Below, piece by piece: positions 12,201 to 57,978 of a stretch of DNA of 64,000 nucleotides (positions within the stretch are counted from its first letter, which is position 1; every line of letters starts with the position of its first letter). The stretch is taken from NCBI GenBank assembly GCA_002269645.1, contig NIVC01001165.1:379491-443490 (forward strand), read 5' to 3'. The translations under genes were made by a program, and so were the position numbers. The notes under the pieces were generated by a model. The model saw only the letters and a program-made list of their open reading frames with translations, was not told the DNA's origin and did not search any database. This DNA comes from Macrostomum lignano. Its lineage: Eukaryota.

Positions 12201-13917
12201 CTGGACTCTCACTTAAACACCTTTTTACATAATTGAAAGCAATTTTTTCAGTTCTATGCAGAGTGCGAAGCAGAATTAGAAATTATGCTCTGCAATAGGA
12301 GCACATGGAGAGCAGTATAGTACTGAACATCTGTGAGGCTGTATATTAAGGAAGCTCATTTTCACAATGCCGTCGCTTCCGCTCCGGGATTGATTCGGCG
12401 AGATCCGGGAAGGGCTTAGGCCTCGCTTTCTTTCACCCGCCTCATTTCTCTCTTCCCTCCATTTCGCCTTCCTGCGAACGTGATGAGGAAGATCGAGGAT
12501 CTCTGCTCGCCCAGAATCTTTCCCATGTCTTCATCACTCCAGCCTCAGCCGAGGTAGTGCTGTTGTCGTTTTCAATTACCAATTGATGCGGCTTAACAGA
12601 AGAGGGGCGAGGCTGGAGGATTGAGAGGAAAATGAGAGAGCTGGGTGGCGAGAAGGATGCTGATGTCTAGAGGAGCTAAACTGGAACTATTAGCGCTGTT
12701 TCTATCAACCAAGCCGGGTCTTTAATTAATTTTTTCAACTAAAAAGGCAGGAAACTTGCTTATTAAAAAACTAGAGACCAACGGGCAGCATGAAATAGGA
12801 AGCTCGCACAGCAAGGAGGCAGTAAATAACTGCATCCTTAGCTGCCTTTACCCCGCAATCCATCCAATGGCTCCTCCTTGCAGTTATAATATACACTTTT
12901 TGCCGAAGCATTCTCGCAACCTCCGCCCCGCGAAAGCTCAGCAAAGTCGCTAATTGTCACTAATCCGCGAATTTTTCTGAGAAGCGCAGAGACAGGAAAG
13001 AGAGAGAGAGATGAAGGGCCTGAGCACTAGTTCAGCTAGTCGTGTCTTCCGACTCAAGCCCATGGCAACTACGGATATACGGGAATAATCTTTCTGGTGC
13101 GTTATTTCGTAGAAGCTCTCACATTTTTGCTCCTGGAGTTCGCGGCTGGCTCGGGCCTACAGTGTAGCATTGCTACAGTTTTATGGGCCCGGCCAGTTTA
13201 TCAGCGCGTCGGCTTGCTTTCTAGCTGAGGTTGGGGAGGGGGTGCCGCGGAAGTAGTCAAAGCAGGCAATTCGTTAGGGAACTCCCGGCCTATTCGGTAA
13301 CCGAATAGGAAAGCTGCGACGTAGCTATGAACCAATTCTAATACATTCATACTAGGATAAGCCTCGATGCTTGTAGAGCTACTCACGGATTACGCGTACA
13401 CCTCCGACAGCAAAAAATATAGTAGTCAGTAATTGTTTCATAACACATTTTTGATACATAAAATGCCACCCACTGCAGCCTATTTGACTCCCGGCTTGAC
13501 ATCTGAATAAACATTTTTGACTAGTTCCCGCTCAAAGTACTAAATTTTAGTGATGAAAAACTTGAATCTTAAACAACGCATTCAGCAACATCGTGAAACA
13601 ACCAACGCCGAGGCAATTCTGCCCATTTCGCCGACTCCTAAGCACCAATACTGTACGCAGGCACCCACTTATACATACGCTCACACAGGGTGTACAGCGG
13701 CCCTGACTTTATAATCGTCAGGCATGTACACTCTCTCTGTGCTTTGGGGAGTTGACCCTCTCGGTCAGTTCTCAGCCAAGCTCCGAATGAATGTGACCGC
13801 TCACGGAATCGAACCAGGGTCTCCCGCTGGTCTCCCGCTGAGCTGCTCCGTCCCTTGTTCGGTTTCGGTTATTTTAGTCGTGTTGCTTTTTATACCTCTT
13901 ATATAAAGGTTATATAC

Positions 13918-38499: not shown

Positions 38500-40439
38500 C
38501 AGGACACTTGAAAGGCAACACTTTTTCAAAGTATGTAAATTCATTCACAGTTGAGTAAAACACTTGTTGTTTTATAGACCTATTTACGAGTCGTATTAAC
38601 ATGAAACTGATTTGCTCTACGTTACTTCAGATAGAGTTGATGATCCTGACAGTCACAAACGGGATTCAGTGGTGTGTCCAGTTCAAGAAGACTTCAGACA
38701 AGCGTAACCCCACACTCCGTAGTAGCCTGTAGATAGAAACATACAATTTCGTTCGGGGCATGACTAGATCATTTGCTATAGCAACTGCTACTGGACACAT
38801 CTACCTGTCGTTCTGGTGGCTCAGCAAGACAAGAAGTGCATCCAGGAAGAGTACTAAATTTTAGGCCAATAGAAATACCCAGCTTTTTTAACGTGTCCTT
38901 GTAAAGCTTTACATTTTCCAGAGTGTACAAGTCTTTTTTCAGGTGCGTCCTTGATCGTCTTTGGTGATGGAAAATTATGATCATGTTGCTTGCGCGATAC
39001 TGTAATCCTCTGGTGCGGCGCCAACCATAAAAAAAGTATTTTTCCGAATATTTCGAATTTCTCACCTCCTCCGAAAGTCGTTCGACGTCGTTGTCTGTAC
39101 AATTGTTACCAAAATACCAATCGTTTTATCGACATCGGCGGACGTCGGAATATTAATGTGTCTCTGAAGCTCACTAGCATATATCTATTTGATATGAAAA
39201 ATTGTTTATCTATTTTTTGCGGGACTCTGGCTTCGTCTTTATACTTCGTAGCTTCTCTGTTTATCGCAATACATGACAAATTATTACTACATATCTATAT
39301 GCGTGCCTGTTCACGAAAAATCTATATTAACCAGACAACGCCCTGACCTATTGATTTATTTATTATAATATGACGTTGCTACAATTCTATTGGTTTTATT
39401 CTGGTTAAATTTTATTTAGCTAGCTACAGTTTTGTTGTATCCATACTGCCGGTCAGAACCATTGTTAGCTACGGTTTTATGCTTCCACAGGGCTCAATAA
39501 TACTCAATATATGATTTTTTGAATTCGGGATATCTATCTATTGGTTCGCATTTCTGCCCAGACACCTGAAATAACATGATAACTAATTTCTGTAATGTTT
39601 CCCACAATATGAATCCGCTTTTTTAGAATATGTTTTTATTTCGCTGATACTTTTTATTATTTATCAACTTTATTGACTTTTTGACTTTAGTATAAAGCTG
39701 ATAACGCCCCCGCACAACAAAACTATTTTGTGTAAGCTAGTAAAATACACAACGGTATACCTTCGTGCCTCAAATAGAAATAATTTATTTAAAGTTTTTC
39801 TGAGTTCCATCTTGTTAATTCAAGAGTACAGTAAGCTCTACGAGCATAAAGGTGATCAATTTGAATTGGAAATCTTGGATAAGAGATCTTCGAGTTTATT
39901 AAATATTATAATCATAAATATACGAGTGAGCCTATCTGCAGCCTGTTTGTGTGCATTTAGTATAATAATTATATCATTTACTACTAATACTCGTAATATA
40001 AAGATTACCTAGACTATATTTACCCTCGTGAATCTACCGTAAAACCTATTCCATAATTGAGATTGTCAGATTTACGACCAATTTTAGTTAGTTCAGTTAG
40101 AGGAAAGTTTAGCTGCAGACAGACTGCAGTTGCATTGATTTATAATATTAATTATGGTACGACAGTAAGCACGTCATTATATTGTAAATATTTTTTCGAA
40201 TGTCAATGTCAGGCACAAATAAAGGCAATTTAATGACAATAAAAAATGATAATTGTTTTTGATAGCGATAAAATTCCTCAAGATGCCAATGCAAGAAGAT
40301 AGCAGAGAGGCAAAGTCCGAAAACATGGTGCTAGATAATATAGGGTATGTGCGATGCGTAAACACAGTTACCCGATACAAACTAAACCTACTATCATTTA
40401 AACTGCTGAAATCAGTTCTTGACCTCAATAGCAGAGCCA

Positions 40440-41714
40440 TCACTTGCCCTTGTCAATGAGCACCCTGCCAAACACTGACTTGGCCTTGGTGGCATTCCCT
40501 GGCGACAGGCGGCTGAGCAGCCGCTGGCAGGACTCCAACTGGCCGTTCAGCGCCACGTTCTGGCGCACCTTCTCGGCCATGTCGGCCTTCCAGTCCTCCA
40601 GCTCGGCCTTCATGCACACGTTCTGCGTAACGATCTCCCGTATTCGAGTCGCCTCGTCCTCGTGACGCCGCTCCAGCTTGGCCACGGACTCCTTCAGTCG
40701 GCTGCACTGGCGGCAGTCCCGACAGGTTGCAGCCGAAGCCGGCTCCGCATCGTCAGGTATCTCCTCCGGCTCGCCGTCGACCTCAAAGCTCTCGTCCGCT
40801 GCCCTGGCATCGGCGGCTGCTCGCTCCGCGTCTGAGGGAACCTCACCGCGGAGCAGCGACAGCTCTTCGAAGATCTGCGACGCTGCCGAGTTCAGCAGGT
40901 CGTCAGCGTAAAGACGGCTGTGCAGCCGCTCCACGGCTGACCGAAGCTCCCGAGTCGCCGTTCGCAGCTGCTGATTCTCCAGAGTGAGCTGCGCGCCCAG
41001 CTGCCTGTACTGACTGTTCTCCCGCATCAGTTCCGTCATGCGCGACTGCAGCTCCGCATTCTCGCGCACCAGCTCGCGATCAAAGCCGGCAGATGAGTCG
41101 AGAAAATCGGCAGCGCTGCCGCTCACATTGAAGTCGTCGTCGTCGTCCTCCTCCTCGTCATTGTCGCCTTCCGGTTCATCGGCCGCCTCTTGGTCCTCTT
41201 CATCGTCGTCCAGGCTCACTTTCTCGTCGAACTCGCGATTCTTCATTTTCTCAGCGTGCAGCTGCTGCTCCAGGCAGTGGATGGCGGCCGACTTCTCCGT
41301 GACAGCCTCCTGCAAATTGGAGACCAGCAGCTGCTGCTCCGGTCTGCCAGAAATAGCGCCACTGTTGTGGCTGGAGCTCAGCGAGGCTTTGGCGCTGTGC
41401 CTGGAGCTGCTGGACCGCTGCTGCAGGCGGATGCTTCGAAGCGACAGTTCACGAATTTTCAGCTCCTCGGCCTGGGTGTGCAGCCGCTCCCTCAGCCGGC
41501 TGTTCTCCTCCTCGAGCGAGGCTATCTGAGTGGCCTGCTGCACCGACTGCTCCTTCAGCGTGTCCAACTGCTCAGAGTAGAACTCCTCGTAAGTTGTCGA
41601 GATGTCGCCCAGACTCTCAACCAGGAAGACGCAGAGCTTGGCCATGGATTTGAAGTCGGCCTCGCTGCCGGAGGTCATGACTCGCTCGACCACCGATGTG
41701 GCGACCCAGTCGGC
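40440..41714 (-). CDS. Exon 2 of an uncharacterised coiled-coil protein (about 476 aa in total)
   Basis: ctgacag|GCC GAC TGG in frame with the 417-aa ORF; heptad-like E/Q/L-rich segments and an acidic tract. Confidence 0.8.
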   Translation of the reverse strand, partial: ADWVATSVVERVMTSGSEADFKSMAKLCVFLVESLGDISTTYEEFYSEQLDTLKEQSVQQATQIASLEEENSRLRERLHTQAEELKIRELSLRSIRLQQRSSSSRHSAKASLSSSHNSGAISGRPEQQLLVSNLQEAVTEKSAAIHCLEQQLHAEKMKNREFDEKVSLDDDEEDQEAADEPEGDNDEEEDDDDDFNVSGSAADFLDSSAGFDRELVRENAELQSRMTELMRENSQYRQLGAQLTLENQQLRTATRELRSAVERLHSRLYADDLLNSAASQIFEELSLLRGEVPSDAERAAADARAADESFEVDGEPEEIPDDAEPASAATCRDCRQCSRLKESVAKLERRHEDEATRIREIVTQNVCMKAELEDWKADMAEKVRQNVALNGQLESCQRLLSRLSPGNATKAKSVFGRVLIDKGK

Positions 41715-41744
41715 CTGTCAGTGAGGACTGACCATTTTTCAACA

Positions 41745-42245
<501 letters not shown>

Positions 42246-42341
42246 CTAACCTCCAGAGCTTAGAAGTCGTGAAATATTCGTATTATTATAAATACAACAT
42301 CCTCTTAGAAGTACATGGCATTTCAGTGTCCAGGCACAAAC

Positions 42342-42497
42342 CTGAGAGCCTGGCGGATATTCCTCAACTGAACGACGCAAGTAGCGTTGTAGGTGAACTT
42401 CGATCTCTTCAACTAGGGCTGTTAATTCCTCTGAAACGACCTCGGCAATCTGCTCCTCTTGCTGTGTCTGCTTCTGTTTCTCTGATGAGTTATCCAT
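42342..42497 (-). CDS. Exon 1 of the coiled-coil protein
   Basis: ATG GAT AAC...TCT CAG|gtttgt; 52 codons, phase 0 matching the 41714 acceptor. Confidence 0.65.
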
Positions 42498-43427
42498 CTT
42501 GGCCAAGAGTTTGTTGCTGATTGAAGCAGACGCTGAGCTAGGAAGTCTATTCTGCTTGCAGCTACGAACAATGCGAGGCTTGTAACTAACTATTATAACT
42601 CGCTTGTGGCCGTGGTGAGGAACTGGTCTAGGAATTTCACGGCATCGGGAGGGGTGGGGTAAATAGCTGGCAGCAAGGCTGTACAATAGAAAAATAGGGG
42701 AGAGAAGCGACGGGAAGGTCGGTTGGGTCTTGGAGAGGAGGCCTGAGTCTGAGCTCAGGTAAGGTTGGAAAGAGGAAACAGTCCTAAAGTTTGTACTCAG
42801 GAGCTCAATTGGGCTATAGACTGAGTACATTAAATGCTTTGAATTCCTTTCTTTCTATTAGGCTTTCTAATTTTTTTACACTATGCTCAGTTCTGACAAT
42901 AAAAACAACACGTTGAAGGTCCGTTAAATTAAACCACGTGATGACTTACAAATCTGCGAAATTGTCTCCAAGATTTTGTAAACGGTCTGATTACGAGTTG
43001 CAAAAAGCTTGTATGCAAAAATTAAATGCTGCGACCTGCGGTCACGCGCGCAGAAATTCAATTTTTACTGCGCGCGGAGGCAAAGCCGTGCCTTGTGGGG
43101 ACATCAACTGGTGCAGCACGAGTGCACCGGCACTTAACAGCTCGCCAGTCCAGCTGGGGGTTCGGATGCACCCTGCTCAGGTTTGAAACGAACTCACGCC
43201 ATTGCGACTTTCATTATTGGACGGCATGCCCCCACCCAGTGCGAGCTCTACATAAGCCGGTGCAGCTCACAGCCCACATCGCTTCTGACTTGGCTGCGTC
43301 CACACACTGCGAGACGCATCAGAATTCCATTGTGCAAATCAAAGCAATATAAAGTTTAAAGACATTCAGGCCTTACACTTGCATCTAAAGCCTTGCAGCT
43401 TTTTCAGTTGCGAGTTTCTGCAGCGTT

Positions 43428-44931
43428 AGAATGCATGAGGGGGCTTCTGGGACAATTTTTAACGTCCTCCATAATCCCATTAAATCCATCCATATTATCC
43501 CCGACAGAATCAGAAAAAAGGGGGGCCGCACTTGCTCCGAAAACTTCGAACATAATCCTCCTAAATCCATCCATATTATCCCCGACAGAATCAGAGCATA
43601 GCAGGTGTCCTACATAATCCACTGACATCCACCCTTAGCATCTTCGAAACAATCAGAAAATAATCTGCATTTATCTCCCCACATTCAATTCGCAACGCGA
43701 AACCAGATCCTCAGCGCAGGGTGCTCATCCTCCGAAAAAAAATTAAATTCTCAATAAAAATGCTTCCAGTTGTCTCTCCAGGTTATTATTAAAAAGCGCA
43801 CGAGCCTAATTACAAGAGTAAGTACCGATGCAAACTAGAATGCAGTGAGTACATGAGAAAATATTGGCCCGACCACACAATAAATTTCCCTAATAATAAT
43901 CTAGCTCTCCAAAGCCACTGGTTTCTTAAGTATGGAGTAACCTACGTAAAAGATTACGACAGCTACTATAACTTTGCAGAAATCATTAGGCAATTGTAAT
44001 TTCTTCTCACATTCTCTCAATGATTAACGTCAATACAAACTCTTCACCGTTGAAATCAACACCCACCCCATCTTCAGTCTCAAACTGTAGCACAATCTCG
44101 TGAATCTCCTTATTACTCAATACAACTCTTTTCACTGGATTTGGTTTCTCTACCACCATCTGTCCTCCAGCTACAGAGTTGGAAATGTTGTACAAAATAT
44201 TCGTTCGCTTTCCCTTAAATACCCAATCAAGACTGAGATTACTTCTGATTAGAATATTCAAACCCTTTACAATGTCTGCAATATTGGGTGCTAAGAACAA
44301 ACCGCTTACACTTTCCCGGGCCATGCTAGCGGCCCCCGACGCTTGAGTGGCGGTCCGCGCTGTGGATTCTGCCTTAGAAACTTTCTTCTCGAATCCCAAT
44401 TCCCTATACCAAGTGTCATCTTTAAACTCAACCTCCGCATCTTTGTGAACTTGCATGACCACTCTCATTACAGTGAGATCATAGGCTAGTTTGACAGGGA
44501 ACAGTTCTGGCTGAATCAGATCAGGTGTCTCAAAATGGCCTCTTTTAGTAAAGACGTTTTCTAGAAAGTAATTGTAGGTATCCACACTTTGCGTGCTCAC
44601 AGGGAATACCACAGGTTCTGCTGCCGCACCTTTCCATTTGTAATAAAACTTATTATTTGCTGCTGTCACATTGGGAACGTTTGACCAACCAGTGAAATCG
44701 TTAAGATAGACATGCTAATTAGCACCTGGATCCAGGCGAATCGCCTGCTCTAATTTTTGAACAAATATCCCGTTTGAGTCATTAATTCGCCCAGTTATTG
44801 TAATACGAATGCTCTCCTTGGAGTGAGAAATAATATTGTTTAGTCTTTCAGCAATCGCTTCCATTTTTCACCCATAAATAAATTATTTAAACTTTACTGG
44901 ATGTCCCAGAAGCCCCCTCATGCATTCTACT
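43428..44931. mobile_element. Mini-Polinton/Maverick (non-autonomous, 1,504 bp)
   Basis: Perfect 27-bp TIR AGAATGCATGAGGGGGCTTCTGGGACA (43428-43454 and 44902-44928); right end extends ACT (5'-AGT); 6-bp TSD AGCGTT (43422-43427 and 44932-44937); empty site readable in the paralog at about 52988. Confidence 0.85.
44007..44864 (-). pseudogene. Polinton/adintovirus-type minor capsid (penton)-like gene with one premature stop
   Basis: ATG at 44864 is in frame with the 220-aa ORF; TAG at 44715-44717. Motifs AIRLDPGAN*HVYLNDFTGWSNVPNVTAANNKFYY, NILYNISNSVAGGQMVVEKPNP and TEDGVGVDFNGEEFVLTLII follow the Polinton penton pattern (recognised by eye). Confidence 0.75.
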
Positions 44932-46206
44932 AGCGTTGGCTCTGCTGTTTTGCTCGCTGGCAGCCGGCCAGGTCTCCCAGTGCGCTCCCGCTGACTCTCC
45001 GCGGCTCCGCTTCGTGGCGCAGCTCAGCGTGAACGGCTGCGCGCTGTTCGTGCACGACACGGGAGCGAGCGACGGTCCGCACTTGGCAGTCGAGCCGCTC
45101 ATGTGCGTGACGGACAGCGTTCCGATATTGATGAAGGATGCTGGGATGCTTGCAGAGGCTCAGCGTCAACTGCGGCATCTGTCACCGAGGTCTGTGAACT
45201 TCGTCACGGTGGCAACGTTTAAAAGTTGACAAATGTGACTTTTAATGTGTCACATCTGTTGCACGTCTTATCAGGGACGATGTCTCTTCTGAAAGACATG
45301 GCATTTCTGGCTCAATCGTCAACCAAACAGTATTCGCGTACCAAAATTTCGAGATTTTGGATGCATTCGAAATACTTTTTTGTTATTTTAAATGCGTGCT
45401 CATTTGTATTTTTGTTCTTTTCATTCCTTCGTAGCCCTGTGCCGTTTAAACAAGTAATTGACGACTTCCAGGACTGCTGTGCTGGCGGAGCCCGCTGACC
45501 TGTGGCGACACGTGCAGTGGCGGGTGACGTCGCTGGTTGCTAAGCAGTGCCTCTCCAAGTCCAGCCAAATCACTTCATCATGGAGAATGAAACCACCTGG
45601 AAGAGCAGACAGCTGCTTCAGTCTGCAGTCCTGCGCCAGGCTGCAATGCGCCTCTGCTCAACGCACAGCGAACTCTTCCAGTGCGGTTCAACTGCAGCCA
45701 GATGGTCGCTGCTTCGTGAAGTTTCAGCAGCGACTTACTGGCAGTGTGAGTTTCCAACGAAACTGGACTGAGTACGAGACTGGCTTCGGTGACGGCACTG
45801 ACTTCTGGATCGGTGAGTGGCTTGTCAATTGGTGTGCGTCAGGAACCGAAGCAGGTCTTATCAACTGCCATAAGTGTCATTAAGGCCGTACAATTAATAA
45901 CGTTCGTTGGTTGGTGGCTCTGTAAATTAATAGCTAAACTTTTTCTTACATCTTTTCCAGCTTTTCGAAACTTGTATGCCTTCATCTTAAAAATCTGTAT
46001 TTATATTTTATATGTGTAACTATTCCTCTGTAGGCTTTGCGCTGAATTGGATGTCATGATACAACCAAGTAATTATTCGTTCGACGCTCGTATCCAACAA
46101 ACAACAGCAACAACAACAAAGTACGCAGCCCAGCATGCAAGTCACAGTTAGAGCAGGACATGTCAGATGGCGCGTCCCAGATCTTAAGAGCAGACGAAGT
46201 TCGCCC

Positions 46207-46495
46207 TGTTGGCAGTGTCGGGCTCCCAGCGTCGCATAGTATACATTAAATTATTAAGCTGAATAAATGAAAGTTTATTGAAATAAAGTCATGACAGAAC
46301 TTTATTGTGGCACAAAAGCACGAAAAACATTACAGGCTAGAAACCTGCCTTATATTGAAACTATTTGTTATCGATTGACTGACCCACCGCAACCCCCAAC
46401 CCGCGCTAGCAAAGTACATGCAGCGAGAGAGAGAGTCACCAAAACAACCTAACCCAACCCCCGCCCCCGGCGCGCACGCAGGCCAAGCTACCACA
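46207..46495 (-). mobile_element. Probable 3' LTR of the Gypsy element (about 289 bp)
   Basis: On the minus strand a purine tract GGAGGGA is followed by TGTGGTAG and the segment ends ...CTGCCAACA; contains AATAAA. The distal boundary is uncertain because no second LTR is available. Confidence 0.55.
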
Positions 46496-46637
46496 TCCCT
46501 CCATGCCAAGACAAAAGCAACAGAACTTGCAACAAAAAAAGAAAAACCCTCCACCAAAGAAAACAATCAGTCACTGTCAGATAAGTTCACTCGTAGGTCA
46601 GTCGCCCTTGTGGTCCTCTCTGAACGCCGCAGCATCT

Positions 46638-46669
<32 letters not shown>

Positions 46670-49600
46670 GGCGGCTGCGGCGGCGGCGGCGCTTCAGACG
46701 TTGTCACCGACGGAGACAGCTGCCGTGGCCCCGCCCCGCCTGACTGGCCCAATCCTGCCGCTTGCTCAGGTGGGATGATCGCCGGCAATAGGTGGTCGGC
46801 ATGCCGCCGCACGATACGCTCGTCGGGCAGGCGGCACTCGTAGGACAGCGGCCCGGTCCGCCGGCTCACGGAGGCCGGCGCCCACTTCTTCGGACCATTG
46901 AAGTGGCACCAGGACACCGTCGCCTTCTTCGAAGTTGCGATCCCTGGCTCGCAGGTCGTGGTACTCCTTTTGCGAGTCCTGACTGCGCCTGACTGTAGCA
47001 GAGACATCGGGCCGCACGATGTTTAGAAGCGTCCGCAGCTGCCTGCCCATCATCAGCTGGCAGGGTGGAGCACTGGTTGTGCTGTGCGGAGTGACCCGGT
47101 AGGTCAGCAGGAACCGAGCTAGCCGAAACTGCAGGGACGCGGGCCGCCCCTTCGCCAGGGCCGCCTTCACCGTCTGGACCGCTCGCTCGGCCAATCCGTT
47201 GGACGATGGATGATATGGAGCCACTTTGATGTGCCGGATGCCGCTACTGGCCAAGAAGTTGCTCATCTCTTGGCTCACGAAATTCGGACCGTTGTCGCTC
47301 ACTACGACCGCTGGCAATCTCAGCTGACTGAAAGTCCTTCTCAGCCGATCGATTGTGGCAGCACTGGTGGCGGACTGGCAAATGTGGACTTCAATCCATT
47401 TCGAATGAGCGTCCACCAATACTAACAGCATTTTTCCCTCGACTGGTCCAGCGTAGTCCAGGTGGATCCGGGACCACGGTTTGTCCGGACACGGCCACGG
47501 CTGCAGGAGGGTTGGCAGCGGGCAGTTCTGATGACGCTGGCACTCGCCACAGTTCTGTGACAGCTGCTCGATGTCCCGGTCGAATCCGGGCCACCAGAAA
47601 TATCCTCGGGCCAGGGACTTCATCCTTGAAGCTCCTTGGTGGCTCTGATGTAGATAGTCGAGCAGCGCTTGTCGTCCCTGAACCGGCACAATCACACGGT
47701 TGCCCCACAGCAGGCAGCCGTCCTCCAGGCTCAGTTCTGCCGCCCTGACCGCATACGGCTGCAGTTCCGCATCCAGCCGAGCACGAACCGCAGCACTCGA
47801 CTTGTCCAGCCGCGAACCTGAGCAGGCGTCACGGGTCCCTAATTGAACGCATCGATGAGCAGCACTACCTCAGCCGGTGAGAGCGTCTCCACTGTCTTCG
47901 TCGGCAGCGGCAGCCGACTCAGCGCGTCAGCCCGCAGCAGCGAAGTTCCCTTGCGATACTGCAGTCGATACGAGTAGTTCGAAAGCAGCAGAGCCCAGCA
48001 TTGGATCCTCGCTGAAGCCAGTGGTGGCATGGCTTTGCTCTCGTATAGCAGGCCCAGTAGCGGCTTGTGGTCGCTCTTGAGCTCGAAGGTTTTGCCATAG
48101 AGGTAGGCGTGGAAGTGCTTGATCCCAAAAATGATCGCCAGGGCTTCCTTCTCTGTCTGCGAATAGTTCCGATTCTCTCGGCGAGCGATCGGAACGCAAA
48201 GGCAATCGGCCTTTCAAGGCCATCAATCCGGTGGCAGATAACGGCCCCGACCCCGCATGGCGAACTATCGCACTCCAGAATCACCTCCTTTTTGACGTCG
48301 AAATGGACAAGCGCCAGCAAGCTCAGTATCAGCTCCTTGCTGCGCCGGAAAGCATCGGACTGTGCTTCGCCCCATCGCCAGACAGTTCCTTTCTCGAGAA
48401 GCCGGTGCAGAGGAGCCAGAACGCTGGACAGGTTCGGCAGAAATCGGCCGTAATAGTTGAGGAGGCCCAAGAAACTCCTCAACTGCGTGACGTCCTTTGG
48501 CATCGGCGCGTCAACGATCGCGTTGACTTTGTCACTCATCGGATGCAGGCCCTGGACGTCAATCCGATGCCCCAAATAGGTCACCGAATTCTCCATGAAG
48601 CGGCACTTGTCAAGCCGGCACTTCAGCCCAGCATCCTTCAGGCGCTGCAGGACGATCTCCAGATTCTCGAGGTGCTCAGCATCATCGGCGCCGGTCACCA
48701 GCACGTCATCAATGAAGGTTGCCGTATGCTTTGCGCCTTGCAGCAGGCCGTCCATGGTCCTCTGGAAGATTCCAACTGCTGGTGAGATTCCAAACAGTAG
48801 TCTCGTATACCTCAGCAAACCCTTCGAGGTGTTGATGGTTCACAGGCGCTGGGACTCTTCATCGAGCGGAAGCTGCATGTATGCCTGGCTGAGGTCCAGC
48901 TTGGTGAACTTTTGGCCGCCGGTGAGCTTGGCGAACAACTCCTCAATCCTTGGCAGCGGGTAGAAGTCCATCTCCACATCCTGGTTTACCGTGCACTTGA
49001 AATCTGCGCAGATTCTGATGGAGCCGTCCGACTTCAGCACCGGCACGATTGGGGACGCATACTCCGAATCGGAGACCGGCCGCAGGATGCCCTGCTGAAT
49101 CTCCCGCTCGAGCTGCTCTTCCACCTTGGACTTCAAAGCGAAGGGCACCTGCCGCGCCTTTATGAACTTGTGTCGCGCCCCAGGCTTCACTCGCAGTTTC
49201 AGAGGTTCACCCGTGTAGCAGCCGAGGCCACTCGAGAAAACGGGGCTGAACCTCTCTAGTAACTTCTGCACTTGCTGATCCTTTGGAGCCGACGCTTCGG
49301 GCAGCTGCTTGACGCTCCCCCAATTTAACGGCAGCGCAGCCAGCCAGTTCCTACCGATGAGGCTGGAACTGGATCCAGATACCACTAGAAGAGGAAGAAG
49401 CTGCGCTGCTTGGCTTTACCTGGAATCTCTGCAGACACGCTGATCTGACCAATCCCGCTGACTGGCTGTCCGCAGTAGTTCCGCAGCCGAATCGGGGTCC
49501 GCTCGAGCTCAGGAGCCCCGCCCAGCAGGTCGTGATAGGCTCTAGCCGATATCAGCGATACAGCCGCGCCCGTATCGATCTCCATCTGGCAGGACACTCC

Positions 49601-50378
49601 GTTGAGCAGGACCATGGTGATGTACGGCGGCACTTTGGCAGCTGCACTGGGCAAGGTGTTCAGGGAGCCGCAGTCTTGGCTTTCCTCCTCCACGGCGGCG
49701 ACTTGCGACCGCGGCTCAGCTCCAGCCGAATCCGCGCCTCCTAGACAGGCTGCAGTGGTGTGCCCCATCTTGCCGCACTTGAAACAGACCTTCTTCATGA
49801 ATGGGCACTTCGCCGCCAGGTGTTTTGCAGACAGGCACCTGTAGCACCTTTTCGCTGGTCGCTGAGTCGCTACCACATTGGTCTGGCCGACTTGGTCTAC
49901 CGATGCTGCCGAGGCGGCTTGCGGAGTTCCTGCGGACTAGTCCTTGACCAAGTTGCAGTCCTTGGTTGCCAGCTCCACCGCCTGGGAGATCGCCAGTGCT
50001 CTGTCCAGGTCCAACTCTGTCTCGGACAGGAGTCTGCGCTGTATGTGATCATCCTGGATGCCAAGCACCAGACGATCTCTCAGCATGATGCTCAAGCTGT
50101 TACCGAAGTTACAGTGGACAGCCAAACGCCGCAGTGCCGCCAAGAAGTCGGCCACGGACTCCGAGCTCTCTCGAACGCGCTGGTAGAAGTGGAAACTTTG
50201 CACGATCTCTGACGGCTTCGGGTCCCAGTGATCGTCAAGCTTTTTGCAGATGTTAGCGAAGGAAGCCTCTGAAGGCTTAACTGGGGCCAGAAGACTGGTG
50301 ACAAGCCTATAGGTGTCCTTGCCGCACAAGCTGAGGAATGCCGCTCACTTCTTCTCTTCGCTTTCGAGTTCGTTTCAC
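46496..50378 (-). mobile_element. Ty3/Gypsy LTR retrotransposon internal region, Mag/K02A2.6-like, with stops and frameshifts
   Basis: gag (LRDRLVLGI, two CCHC knuckles), protease (MEIDTGA), RT (FIDDVL), RNase H (ECDSS), integrase (HLDYAG, SDNGP, HPSSNGLAERAV). 5' LTR absent. Confidence 0.93.
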
Positions 50379-50407
50379 CAAGCGAGCAACTTTACCTGAA
50401 AAACAGC

Positions 50408-52958: not shown

Positions 52959-54100
52959 ATGCAGCTCTTTCAGTTGCGAGTTTCTGCAGCGTTGGCTCTG
53001 CTGCTCTGCTCGCTGGCAGCCGGCCGCCAGGTCTCCCAGTGCGCTCCCGCTGACTCTCCGCGGCTCCGCTTCGTGGCGCAGCTCAGCGTGAACGGCTGCG
53101 CGCTGTTCGTGCACGACACGGGAGCGAGCGACGGTCCGCACTTGGCAGTCGAGCCGCTCATGTGCGTGACGGACAGCCTGAGAGGCATTGTTCCCCGATT
53201 CGACTTCATCACACAGCAGCTGTACTTCAGCGTCCCTGTATTGATGAAGGATTCTGGAATGCTCGCAGAGGCTCAGCGTCAACTACGGCATCTGTCACCG
53301 AGGTCTGTGAGCTTCGCCACGGTGACCAACATCAGCGTCTCAGCCGACAGCCGCTCATCGGTTCGGGTTTTGGGCTTCCCGTGGACTCCAAATGAGTCAG
53401 TAGCCACTCTGAGACTCGGCTTCGGAGAGAAGATCACATATGAAGCCCTAAATCTACGAGCAAGCATGCTGGGACTGGCGAATATCGACCAATTGACCAA
53501 AGTTTTTCTGTTACCAAACACTCATATAAGCAGACGAAATAAAATTGAAAATTCAACAATCGAGACTCTAAAAAATGTAAAACTCTCAGCTACTCTTCTG
53601 TCGAATGGCTGTTTCCATGAGGTTCAGAGCCGCATCATGCTGCAAAACGACAGCTTCATCGAAGTCGGCTTGTACAGGAAAAAATTCTTACCCGTGTGCC
53701 AACAGCTGCGGTTCAGTCGGTACGTCAAACTCGAGAACTGCTCTGTCCGAGTGCACCAGAGACTCGACATCAAGGGCCACTTCCTCATTGAGCCTCTGCT
53801 GTGCCACAACATCTCCAGCTTGAGCAGCGAGTCAGTCAGGTATGACTACAGCCGAGACATGCACTACCTGAAGCTGGATCTAGTGCTGCAAGATGAGGCC
53901 ACACGCGATTCTGTGAGGACTCAGTTGGCCGACTTGTCGCCTCGCTCGGTCGACTTCATGCGGCTGTGGACTGCTGAGAGATCAGTGAGCTCTTCGTTGA
54001 GTGCTCGGTTTGAGGTCGGTCCGCTGATGGCGTCGACAGACTGGAGGTCCGCTCAGCTGCGGCTGCTCTGCGGAAACTGGACGGAGTGCCGCGATCTCAG
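52959..54100 (+). CDS. Fibrinogen-related protein exon 1: signal peptide and two copies of an unrecognised about 120-aa domain
   Basis: MQLFQLRVSAALALLLCSLAAG...; donor AG|gttggc in phase 2; 7 N-glycosylation sequons. Confidence 0.88.
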
Positions 54101-54491
54101 GTTGGCTGACATTTTCTAAGACATGTGGCAGAAGGTCTGACAATTCGTTCACCGTAATCAAAAACTTTAGTGCTGCTTTTGAGCTGCTCTTTTCTGGACT
54201 GCTTCTTACAGCTTTAGGGAGACAAAAATACTTTTTTAGCATGAGTTTGGAAGCAGAGGATATTTGATTAGGTAAGTTTTAGCTGGCTCGAATTCCTGAC
54301 GTAAATATCGCATAAGCACACATTGCACAGTTGTAAAGTTTATACGAGCGTAAAATAATTGAATGTCTGCGGCATCACTACATTCTAATATCATATACCA
54401 GGCATTATTGGCTTTAAAAACTTGCTCTGACTTTTTCTGTTTCATTCCTTCGTAGCACAGTGCCGTTAAAAAAGTAATTGACGACTTCCAG

Positions 54492-54829
54492 GGCTGCTGT
54501 GCTGGCGGAGCCCGCTGACCTGTGGCGACACGTGCAGTGGCGGGTGACGTCGCTGGTTGCTGAGCAGTGCCTTTCCAAGTACAGCCAAATCACTTCATCA
54601 TGGAGAATGAAAGCGCTTGTAAGCGAGAGCTGCTACAGTCTGAAGTCCTGCGCCAGGCTGCAATGCGCCTCTGCTCAACGCACAGCGAACTCTTCCAGTG
54701 CGGTTCAACTGCAGCCAGACGGTCGCTGCTTCGTGAAGATTCAGCAGCGACTTACTGGCAGAGTGAGTTTCCAACGAAACTGGACTGAGTACGAGACTGG
54801 GTTCGGTGACGGCACTGACTTCTGGATCG
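54492..54829 (+). CDS. Fibrinogen-related protein exon 2: Cys-rich segment and start of the fibrinogen C-terminal domain
   Basis: ttccag|G...ATC G|gtgagc; IQQRLTGRVSFQRNWTEYETGFGDGTDFWIG is the canonical FReD signature. Confidence 0.92.
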
Positions 54830-55435
54830 GTGAGCGGCAGTTTTGAGTCAACTAATGTTGTGTGACGAGAGAGGTAGCAGATTTTGTGAATCTTATATTG
54901 AAATGCTAGTTGACTCATAAGCTTTCAAATGACAAAAGATGAATTGAAAGGTTAGCTTCTCGGCTAATTAAAGGAATGTTAACTTTCAGTTGCGCCATGA
55001 CTGCAATGCTCTACATTGACCTTTCCCGCCTTATTGGCGTTTCGGGCTCTCGGCTGGCTTCAGTGAGTCAGGAGGCTACTGTCATTATTTTCAACGAGCT
55101 CACCAAAAGATATTGATGAGATTCTCTAGTCTCAGGAAGTTTGGGATAATTTGCTCTAGTCTGTCTTTTACACGGCCAGGACCCCTAATAGCAAAAATAG
55201 TGTGTTTCAGTTAGCAAAAAAGTTTATCCAGGAGTTGTCAATGAAAAGGATTTGGACTCTCCATCCAGACAACAAAATTTTCGAAAAATAGAAGTCCCAA
55301 AACTAATCTGACGCGAAAAGCAGTAGAAAGCAGTTTAGTCCATTACCAGCTGTTCGAACAAAAAACTTGGGCTTGCTGTGTTGGCCATTACAGTGCATTT
55401 GCTGAAATGAAGCAGCACCAGCCAGAGCAGCAACA

Positions 55436-56952
55436 AACTTCATTGTGCATTCCCAAGTTCGGCACTGTAGCACTCCTAGACTCCTAGGCATTACCCTGGA
55501 CCGTACGCTCAGCTTTAACGCGCACGTCAACGACATCTGCAGCAGAGTCCTGTCCCGCTGCCGCATGCTGTCCTGCCTCGCGGCTCGGGACTGGGGTTGG
55601 CGCAAGGAGCGCCTTCGCGGCGTCTACCTGGCTATGCAGCAGAGCCTTCTTAACTACGCGGCCCCGGCTTGGCAACCTTGGCTTTCCAGCTCCTCCTTCG
55701 AACGCCTTGAGCGCGCGCAAAACCAGGCCCTCAGAATCGTCACGGGCTTGCACCGCTCGGCGCCGCTTGACGCTGTGCACCTGGAGGCCGGCATCGGCAG
55801 CTACAGGAACACCAGCGACCGCCTTTGCCTCATCGCCAGGGAACGCGCGCTCAGGCTGCCCAACGACCATCCTCGCGCCATCGCCCTCTCGGGCACCGTG
55901 CAACACCGGCTCGCCCGCAGTAGCTGGAGACTCCGCTCGGCTCAGCTCGCCAATGGCCTTGGCATTGATCTCACGCCGCGTTTGCCGCTCACACCGGCCT
56001 TTCCATGCCCCTGGCTGGACCAACATCTCCCGGCGATCCTAGCTGACAATCCTTTGCCTCCGGCCACCACGCCCCCGTTGGAGCGCTGTCTTGCCGCTCT
56101 TGACGTCATCCGGTCTCACCCGGCTGAGCTCGTCATATACTGCGACGGTTCGGCGGCCGGCGGCTCCGAGGCTGGCGGGGCGGCCGCTGTGGTCACCATC
56201 GGAGACCCGGCAGTCCCGACGAACGTAAAAGTCCGCACGGCCGCTGGCAGCCGCTACACCAGCTCCTTTGAAGAGGAACTCCGCGCTCTGGTCCTAGCGC
56301 TCGACTACCTCCGCTCGCATCCCACGCGCTCTGCCATCATCTGCTCTGACAGTCAGTCTCTTCTGCGCGCCCTTCAGCGTCCCTTCAGCCGCCTGGCCTC
56401 TTCTCTCCGCTTCCCGCACAACTGTCGCGCCCTCCTGTGGGTCCCGGGTCATGTCGGCATTCCGGGCAATGAACTCGCGGACCGCGCTGCTAACTCCGCT
56501 GCCGCCATCGCCGATGAAGCACCGCGCCCCAGCATCAGTTTTCCCACTGCCGCCTCGGTGATCCGCCGCACTCTGGCGGACAAGCCGGTCACCCACGCGA
56601 GATCTCGTCTCACCTACGCCTCCGCCGACGCCGACAAGGAACGTCGGCTTATTACTAACCGCAAAGACGCTCTCCTTCTTGCCCGGCTGCGCTCCGGCCA
56701 CTCCAGCCTCTTCGGAGCCTTCCGCGCCCTCATGGACCCCACGGTGGATCCGACCTGCCAAAAGTGCTCCCTCGAACCAGACACCCTTGAGCACTGGATA
56801 GCGTGCCCTGCTCTCGAGGCCGCCCGCCGTCGCTTCATTGGAGCTCCGATCTCCCTCAGCAACTTGTCCGATTACCCTGATGGTTTGGTCGCGCTGGCCA
56901 GGTTCTGTATGGATCCTGGGCGCGTTTGGGTCATCTAACAACAACAACAACA
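55436..56952 (+). mobile_element. 5'-truncated RNase H-bearing non-LTR retrotransposon (I-group-like) in FREP intron 2
   Basis: Uninterrupted 497-aa ORF: RT thumb (LLGITLDRTLSF), RNase H (YCDGS, SDSQS, WVPGHVGIPGNELAD), C-terminal CQKC..H..C finger; (CAA)n tail; 12-bp TSD AGAGCAGCAACA (55424-55435 and 56953-56964). Confidence 0.92.
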
Positions 56953-57562
56953 AGAGCAGCAACAGTCATGGCTTCATCAGCCGACTCAGTTCTTCAGCTG
57001 CTCTTTGCAACTGACTGACTGTTAAATCATTTTTACATTTTTCATTTTCAGCTTTGAAGCTTAAATTATTTTTTCCGTCGTATTATATATAGTATCGACT
57101 TTTTGAGACGATAAACACTGCTGTACTTCGTCTTCCGATGCGAAGATCTGCTTCCCACTGGTCAATCAACATCCCCATCCCCGCAAAAATCGGTGCATAT
57201 AGAAAATTTTGCGTTTATTTCTATGCAGACCAGTAAGCTTGGTCATGCAGCCAATTCTTTAACTAAAAAGTTGCACTGTCTATGGTATGTATAAGATGAA
57301 TGGCCTCATGACAGCCTTCTGATATATGCATGAAGTGCATGTATTGCATAGTTTGTAAAAGTCTGACTTGCGTGAAAGTTTTTCAAAGAATTCCGCTTGC
57401 GTAAGCGGCTCAAAATGGATCATTTAACCTTGCAATAAGCCTATTTATCTTTAATATCTGCTTTATTAAAACGCGTATTTAGTTTTTTTACATTTTCGTT
57501 AACATATGAATTGCGACGAGCCGAGCAGAAGTGACTCAGACTCAGCCGCTCTCCTCCCGCAG

Positions 57563-57978
57563 GTCTCTCCGCCATCCACTCGCTCAGCCAGGGCGGCGCC
57601 ACCCTCAGAGTGGAGATGAAGCTGTGGAGCGGCTCTGAGCTGCATGCGGAGTACGCAGGATTCCAGGTGGGAGACGCCAGCACTGGGTATCGGATGACGT
57701 ACCGAGAGATGCTGAGCCACAGGTCCAGTGTCAGCTGGAATGCTCTGGAGCTCAGCAAAGACATGCGGTTCTCCACGATGGACAGGGACAATGACATATG
57801 GGGTGCTTCGTGCTCAAGCCGTTATGGAAAAGGAGGCTGGTGGTTTAAAGACTGCCATCAATGCAACCCTAGCGGACGCTTTCCTAGGCGAGACACACCA
57901 GATTCCAGATATATGGTCTGGTACTCTGGCTCTTTCTGGCTGTCTCTTCGTGAAATGTGGCTGCTGCTGCAGATTTGA
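57563..57978 (+). CDS. Fibrinogen-related protein exon 3 (rest of FReD); spliced CDS 1,896 nt, 631 aa
   Basis: cccgcag|GT CTC in phase 1; FSTMDRDND...SC...GGWWFKDCHQCN. Confidence 0.92.

Follow-up and report, generated by a model that had tools for sequence, protein, structure and literature searches.

Polintons (Mavericks) carry a 6-bp target site duplication (TSD), an AGT-type terminus and long terminal inverted repeats (TIRs), as described in PMC4028283 and PMC8097293, and the family reported here has the same features. In the survey of PMC8097293, 96% of 3,511 vertebrate Maverick loci were degraded. Internally deleted TIR transposons have been proposed, for Ac, P and Tc1, to arise by abortive gap repair and by microhomology-mediated joining (PMC3814204). 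The window (the whole stretch of 64,000 nucleotides of Macrostomum lignano DNA analysed) contains a 1.5-kb copy with AG..CT simple-repeat termini, TIRs and a 6-bp TSD, as in Polintons/Mavericks; however, an autonomous member would have pPolB and rve integrase in 12-25 kb, whereas this copy has only the penton gene and four codons of the major capsid protein (MCP) gene in 1504 bp. It is a derivative and not an autonomous Polinton/Maverick member.

Insertion site and extent of the 1.5-kb element

The features of the locus, in window coordinates, are as follows.

43393..43427, plus strand: beginning of a host gene copy of the fibrinogen-domain family (11-12 codons), signal-peptide-like
43422..43427, plus strand: left TSD, AGCGTT, present once in each of the 21 paralogous loci with an empty site
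43428..~44003, no strand assigned: whole TIR of the Polinton family, ~580 bp here and ~620 bp in the long copy on contig C1, without the terminal AGT
44007..44864, minus strand: 285-codon gene for the penton (minor capsid protein with a single jelly-roll), interrupted by a stop at codon 50
44887..44903, minus strand: last four codons and stop of the MCP gene, cut by the deletion, identical to the 3′ end of a 428-aa double jelly-roll (DJR)-like ORF
44902..44903, no strand assigned: deletion join with TG as 2-bp microhomology, ~13.9 kb of parental sequence being lost
44902..44931, no strand assigned: stub of the second TIR, its outermost 30 bp, ending in the complete ...TACT terminus
44932..44937, plus strand: right TSD, AGCGTT
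44932..45880, plus strand: continuation of the interrupted host gene copy, with a shortened first exon and the first fibrinogen-C exon
52988..52993, plus strand: empty site AGCGTT in the tandem paralogue

The insertion target was the first exon of one copy in a tandem fibrinogen-domain gene family. The beginning of the gene was judged by eye, from the translation of the paralogue, to resemble a signal peptide, and the start codon of the interrupted copy reads TTG, whereas the paralogues have ATG. Downstream of the element, the host copy matched bp 52988-53324 and bp 54432-54838 of the paralogue, and a Pfam Fibrinogen_C domain was located at bp 45458-45880 (E 9e-9); in the paralogue, the ATG lies at bp 52959 and Fibrinogen_C at bp 57535-57975 (E 6.8e-22). 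The interrupted copy is without a segment of ~0.9 kb that the paralogue has between both matched blocks.

A 6-bp TSD, AGCGTT, as given in the preliminary description, was present on both sides of the element and only once at the empty sites. Examination of 30 loci similar to the right flank revealed that 3 were filled and 21 had an empty site (AGCGTT in 19 and AGCGTC in 2), while 1 differed upstream and 5 had no match to the 20-nt anchor; the empty site that had been read in the paralogous gene was recovered as a single AGCGTT at bp 52988-52993. The TSD, both termini and the empty site in the paralogues agree with the earlier claim that the unit was integrated by its ends.

The terminus of the family reads AGTAGAATG..., and the right end is complete (...TTCTACT at bp 44931). 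The left end is without the first three terminal bases (AGT), as is that of the homologous contig C2158, and the element therefore spans bp 43428-44931, 1504 bp; the extent first reported, bp 43422-44937, belongs to a real element, but it included the TSDs. The inverted repeat at bp 43428-43454 and bp 44902-44928 was identical at 27 of 27 positions (BLAST E 6.6e-8 within the window), so that the perfect 27-bp TIRs described earlier are correct as to identity, but they are a remnant of a TIR of ~620 bp and not a full TIR. The short perfect repeat results from the overlap of one whole TIR with one 30-bp stub. This whole TIR, which contains internal repeats of ~62-81 bp at bp 43461-43657, matched both ends of a 15.4-kb copy on contig C1 (element positions 3-624).

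Penton gene and parent Polinton family

One minus-strand frame (bp 44864-44007), with its ATG located 38 bp inside the right repeat and a GC content of 0.42 versus 0.48 in the window, corresponds to the single AT-rich gene noted at this position before. Since a Pfam search with the 220-aa part after the stop gave no family, the identity of the product was sought in its fold. Sequence searches for relatives gave 17 and 95 unnamed matches, and the protein, with X at the stop codon, was modelled from an alignment of 81 rows containing 80 relatives from both searches, fragments and some matches being left out. The model (pLDDT 91.2, pTM 0.82) was almost all beta, and it showed a single jelly-roll base with an inserted domain, as in solved pentons. 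Foldseek, in line with the earlier call of a penton, placed the mavirus penton at ranks 1-6 (E 8.9e-10 to 5.1e-9), followed by the adenovirus penton base and Sputnik, and a comparison with viral models gave adomavirus LO5 and putative minor capsid proteins among the matches. VIA-align gave Z 13.0 for the PBCV-1 capsid chain (rmsd 7.0, 255 aligned), Z 12.8 for the mavirus penton (rmsd 7.3, 231 aligned), and Z 11.9 and 11.7 for two further matches, whereas unrelated folds reached 6.3 at most. By its fold, the gene at bp 44864-44007 is correctly called a penton gene. Its start lies 22 bp after the MCP stop in the window and in long copies alike. In run X11, possibly RNA, the penton contig differed from the window copy.

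The TIR core had 528 matches genome-wide versus 0 in the control; halving this number gives a family size of roughly 260 copies. Six exact 21-nt searches identified 490 termini (489 listed), a census of exact termini only, and facing pairs were called by adjacency, so that copies with two degenerate ends fall outside it. There were 108 facing pairs, with 68 spanning 13.5-17.5 kb (median 15,962), 26 longer and 14 shorter. An exact 6-bp TSD was present in 6 of the 9 long pairs checked, and a copy of 15,423 bp on C1 had TIRs of 620 bp that were 97.9% alike. A full-length family with the same TIR, of the kind that the preliminary description had proposed to look for as a helper, is thus present in the genome.

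The long copies contained DNA_pol_B_2 (E 2.9e-8), rve (E 1.2e-9), Pox_A32 (E 2.7e-6), the adenain-like protease Peptidase_C5 (E 1.4e-4) and a DJR-like MCP (E 3.1e-5, below the curated cut-off), as well as a parvovirus-type PLA2 domain (E 1.2e-13), a pX-like domain (E 2.6e-7) and pPolB of the PF03175 type. The set of pPolB, integrase, ATPase, protease and DJR MCP was found across several long copies, many of the ORFs being broken. In the 15.4-kb copy the integrase is located at 2.3-3.1 kb and MCP and penton at 12.6-14.8 kb, the MCP of a long copy being the 428-aa DJR-like ORF with the penton directly after it. With a size of 15-16 kb, within the 15-20 kb of the class, long TIRs and a 6-bp TSD, the parent family can, on these sequence features, be assigned to Polintons/Mavericks as defined in PMC4028283 and PMC8097293; the Polinton origin claimed for the window element is supported, as copies with the same terminus carry integrase, pPolB, protease, ATPase, MCP and penton. 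Of 28 other top-scoring loci, some of them copies of one site, 22 had a penton frame without interruption, and the pN/pS of 0.24 among 19 long copies (171 pairs; 3 same-site duplicates left out) suggests that the penton is under purifying selection in the parent family.

Internal deletion and the origin of the short copies

The window element was colinear with one end of a long copy over the whole TIR, the penton, the 22-bp spacer and the last four MCP codons; after the MCP remnant, the sequence continues, from a shared TG onward, as the outer 30 bp of the far TIR. Among the best 40 of 761 genome matches to the element, 37 stopped at query position 1474-1476, which is the join, and at 23 of the 25 loci readable at the join the match was followed by one shared MCP sequence, while the remaining 2 were the window insertion. 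The penton is the sole gene, as had been stated, accompanied by the last four MCP codons, and this content follows from the parental gene order, because the penton is the last gene and adjoins the surviving TIR.

When the whole genome was searched for the join, up to 2 mismatches being allowed, it was found at 3 places, on contigs C1165 (the window), C136 and C2158, versus 0 in the control. All three copies had the same flanks and the same TSD and thus represent one insertion in three homologous contigs. In run X5, one contig of the C136/C2158 type bridged the join (bp 44845-44956), and in run X1 a contig covered bp 43320-43456 without difference, although only 29 of its letters lay within the element, fewer than the 31 required; among the contigs of four runs, the empty site was found as a joint in three runs, as predicted from the paralogues. 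Because the join is present in three contigs and is bridged by a contig of an independent run, it is not an assembly artefact.

The three short copies were 2.7-3.1% apart over the element and 4.6-5.4% from two long copies compared. The penton is broken in each of them, by the stop in the window, a frameshift in C136 and an insertion of ~2.5 kb in C2158, and C136 has additionally lost 425 bp including the left end. Penton pN/pS was 0.39-0.62 among the short copies, higher than in the long ones. In one of the three comparisons between short copies there was an excess of synonymous change (10/24, p 0.024; others 0.18 and 0.11), a test in which transition bias is uncorrected and the pairs are not independent. 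Within the gene alone, the window copy had 24 differences from the long copy L011 versus 24-26 from its own homologues. Overall, the element is dead, a product of internal deletion that derives from an abundant Polinton family and is present at a single insertion site. The preliminary description had named a unique copy equal to a full-length element minus one internal deletion as the finding that would speak against its own reading, and such a copy is what was found.

We consider it quite probable that the deletion took place in an integrated Polinton. On this reading, the retroviral-like integrase of a ~15-16-kb Polinton inserted it into exon 1 of a single fibrinogen-domain gene copy, generating the 6-bp TSD, and one deletion with 2-bp microhomology then removed ~13.9 kb, from the MCP end to 30 bp inside the far TIR. 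Such a deletion would have occurred inside the chromosome, by end-joining or by abortive gap repair of a break. The short remnant has since come to stand in three homologous contigs and has gone on decaying there, and it is now presumably inert except for inactivating the host gene copy. It had been suggested earlier that the unit may have been mobilised at its present size, which is not supported; the intact TSD is uninformative on the size at integration, since both it and the ends are unaffected by an internal deletion. No homologous copy of the window site with a long element was found, all three contigs carrying the deletion, and no long allele was present among the best 40 of 205 flank matches. 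As all three contigs share the deletion, the case for its occurrence in place is an indirect one.

All 14 short pairs of the family were read. Of the 66 remaining unpaired termini belonging to the window's subtype, 65 were followed inward for 3 kb, with 15 stretches read further; ~190 unpaired termini of the other subtype lie outside this survey. Including the window element, 11 closed, TSD-flanked short derivatives were obtained, 7 with an exact TSD and 4 with 5 of 6 bases, having sizes of 0.64-0.72, 0.70, 0.87, 1.50, 2.45, 3.3-3.5, 3.6, 6.1, 8.7, 11.3 and 12.5 kb. They had eleven different joins at eleven sites, none being found at two sites, and five of them stand in three homologous contigs. 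Derivatives of less than 8 kb consisted of TIR only or of end-near sequence, namely the integrase region (2.45-, 3.3- and 6.1-kb copies) or the MCP/penton region (3.6-kb copy); none of the eight kept a central gene alone, and the genes were often fragments. Candidates on C105 (3.8 kb) and on C1024/C1547 were dropped, as they had no TSD. Contigs C45 and C114 share a flank; C45 continues as a long copy with insertions, and in C114 the 9 kb that follow element position 13781 are free of Polinton sequence, reflecting a large insertion or loss. A search for a long allele at the C544 site of the 3.6-kb copy met a tandem array as flank, which no second contig matched over its full extent. No other derivative had the join of the window, and neither independent short copies of it nor a set of elements with the same TIR and different single genes, both named as checks in the preliminary description, was found, the other short copies being heterogeneous deletions at single sites. 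The spectrum of short copies, as read from their sequences, points to independent central deletions and not to a satellite family or a segmented genome.

It was also noticed that the four derivatives of 1.5 kb or less each had one arm of only 26-88 bp, for which p is ~0.0007 under a uniform join (post hoc). Random deletion alone does not account for such arms in all four. The short arms may represent a minimal terminus or one-sided gap repair. Near-palindromes are unstable and can lose one arm, which is another possible source of these arms.

An alternative, which we regard as rather unlikely, is that the element was a defective genome, deleted by a template switch during extrachromosomal protein-primed replication, integrated once in trans by the integrase of a helper, and then decayed. 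Since no long allele was seen at the window site, some small probability has to be left to a deletion preceding a single helper-driven integration, and a long allele was likewise found at none of the four other short sites present in several contigs. Both termini were kept, and the arms of 26-88 bp could be a minimal origin. In addition, an element of 11.3 kb at one site (C276/C1652/C3945, TSD TAGATG), with a penton/MCP end on both sides, arms 99.7% identical and neither integrase nor pPolB, has the shape of a copy-back genome; its join was present at one site only among the best 40 of 329 candidates. Polintons without polB that are still mobile have been described in insects (10.1101/2025.02.07.637071). 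Against this, each structure was found at a single site, whereas defective genomes mobilised in trans would be expected to recur often, and a repair in place for which the identical far TIR served as template could yield the same structures. Intact vertebrate Mavericks, as reported in PMC8097293, are also constrained in size (12.7-24.6 kb), and the left end is without the terminal AGT in two contigs, perhaps owing to later slippage in TAG-TAG. It is accordingly doubtful, although conceivable, that the family throws off deletion-type and copy-back defective genomes which are integrated in the germ line by the integrase of a helper with no more than 26-30 bp of one TIR.

In-place deletion is also preferred to the mobility at the present size that had been suggested earlier. 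A family of mini-Polintons, mobile but non-autonomous (MITE-like, satellite or defective-interfering), spreading at 1.5 kb with a helper and supplying or competing for the penton, would fit the intact TSD and ends and the abundant long family with the same TIR, and the name Polinton-1N1_DR in PMC9341505 indicates that non-autonomous Polinton families have been named. However, the 3 matches to the join represent one site, the penton is broken in all of them, and no pair of 1.0-2.5 kb was present among the 108 exact-terminus pairs; when the window's subtype was followed inward from 65 unpaired termini, the one facing terminus met within 3 kb belonged to another site and another structure. This possibility is highly improbable and largely refuted in the present assembly. 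That the element is one segment of a multipartite Polinton with genes split over elements with the same TIR has next to no probability, because with 68 long pairs segmentation is unnecessary, and although short derivatives with other genes exist (integrase region; MCP and penton region), the 11 heterogeneous derivatives keep only end-adjoining sequence, often fragments, each at a single site, and no recurrent, complementary segments of conserved size with intact genes were found among them. Taken jointly, with neither a recurrent join nor complementary segments, a mobile satellite or multipartite segment as proposed before is very unlikely.

Significance and comparison with known systems

As it stands, the window element is an ordinary find, a decayed member of a class of endogenous virus-like transposons that is already known. 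The family to which it belongs, with its ~260 copies and a penton apparently under purifying selection, is of some use, and the joins of its single-site derivatives record how Polintons break. If the derivatives were made before integration, they would provide sequence evidence for defective-interfering Polinton genomes and for a Polinton integrase acting in trans, subjects for which our literature searches found no dedicated paper, and the short copies would be fossils from which the smallest terminus sufficient for replication and integration could be read. An origin in place, through gap repair, would be a hint of Polinton excision from chromosomes.

The best structural matches of the window penton were the pentons of mavirus, Sputnik, adenovirus and PBCV-1 (VIA Z 11.7-13.0), which differ from it in having 9-12% identity and an rmsd of ~7 A over the whole chain. 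Literature searches on non-autonomous or defective-interfering Polintons revealed no description of a penton-only mobile element, nor is one shown by the present data. The parent, of 15-16 kb, resembles the Polintons/Mavericks described so far in having pPolB, rve integrase, A32 ATPase, adenain-like protease, DJR MCP and an adjacent penton, whereas the window copy has the penton only and none of the enzyme genes. In the family described here the penton lies downstream of the MCP, a point of difference, and the terminus is AGT-AGA, whereas (AGT)2 or (AG)3 is listed for vertebrate Polintons in PMC8097293. Like alpha adintoviruses, as described in 10.1101/697771, the parent has a PLA2 domain, a pX-like domain and a PF03175-type pPolB, traits by which it may be of the alpha-adintovirus type; PLA2X is one protein in those viruses, whereas here the PLA2 domain and the pX-like domain lie in separate ORFs, each from a different copy. 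As in Ds of Ac, deleted P, mPing, Made1 and Gnome, in the account of PMC3814204, the ends and the TSD were kept, the centre was lost and a short microhomology is present at the join; those families were amplified at short size, whereas the window element represents one insertion site.

Divergence around the window element

The 1504-bp Polinton in the window (43428-44931), an internally deleted copy that keeps the penton gene, was compared over window 40001-46900 with C136 and C2158, two homologous contigs having the same insertion and deletion join. The left flank differed by only 0.6-1.1%, whereas the element and its right flank differed by 2.8-3.4%; this step may mark a recombination or conversion switch near the left end. 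The short copy on C2158 had a further insertion:
L089 7778-10000 and L049 1-2061 (C2158): ~2.5-kb insertion within the penton gene

On the minus strand at window ~46500-50400, pol fragments of LTR-retrotransposon type (RVT_1, RNase H, integrase zinc finger and rve) apparently sit in the host gene copy interrupted by the element. The host genes form a tandem family. Their start resembles a signal peptide, the first exon (~386 aa) had no Pfam match, and other exons encode Fibrinogen_C:
Window 52959-57978: copy of this tandem gene family, with ~20 paralogues on C136, C1165, C1580, C3268, C3286 and other contigs

Reading by eye also located a non-LTR-like RNase H frame at 55406-56938. A long microsatellite array with a period of 4/8/12 bp occupied window 41641-42250, and an array of this type was also noticed near the long Polinton copy on C1.

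The Polinton family and its rearranged copies

Genome-wide, 528 TIR-core matches corresponded to roughly 260 copies, and the exact termini fell into two subtypes, AGAATG (140) and AGAAGG (350). Long copies show purifying selection on the penton gene, with a pN/pS of 0.24 over 171 pairs of 19 copies. Several copies were rearranged:
L043, L044, L095 (C124, C289, C3455), L092-L094 (C3907, C4364, C4682) and L101 (C32): gene-less, TSD-flanked remnants, 0.64-0.87 kb long, made up of TIR sequence alone
L050, L054, L055 (C273, C1391, C3468): one Polinton nested in another, at ~7170 of the host copy, in the pPolB region
L107 ~8797 (C3908:54800): Polinton end passing into tandem repeats of a short TIR piece, TGCCCTCATGCC-like

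Joins in the TIR-only remnants were markedly one-sided, with one arm of just 26-88 bp. The nested copy had the same flank on all of its three contigs, and the end at C3908:54800 was adjoined by two more termini of the same direction.

A Polinton-derived element with two capsid ends

C276:289398-300645 (L008, L035): 11.3-kb Polinton-derived element, TSD TAGATG, with homologous copies on C1652 and C3945

This element had the penton/MCP end of the Polinton at both termini, the arms being 99.7% alike, and one ATPase region in the centre; neither integrase nor pPolB was present in it. Its join was found at a single site only (best 40 of 329 candidates scored). This arrangement has the shape of a copy-back product.
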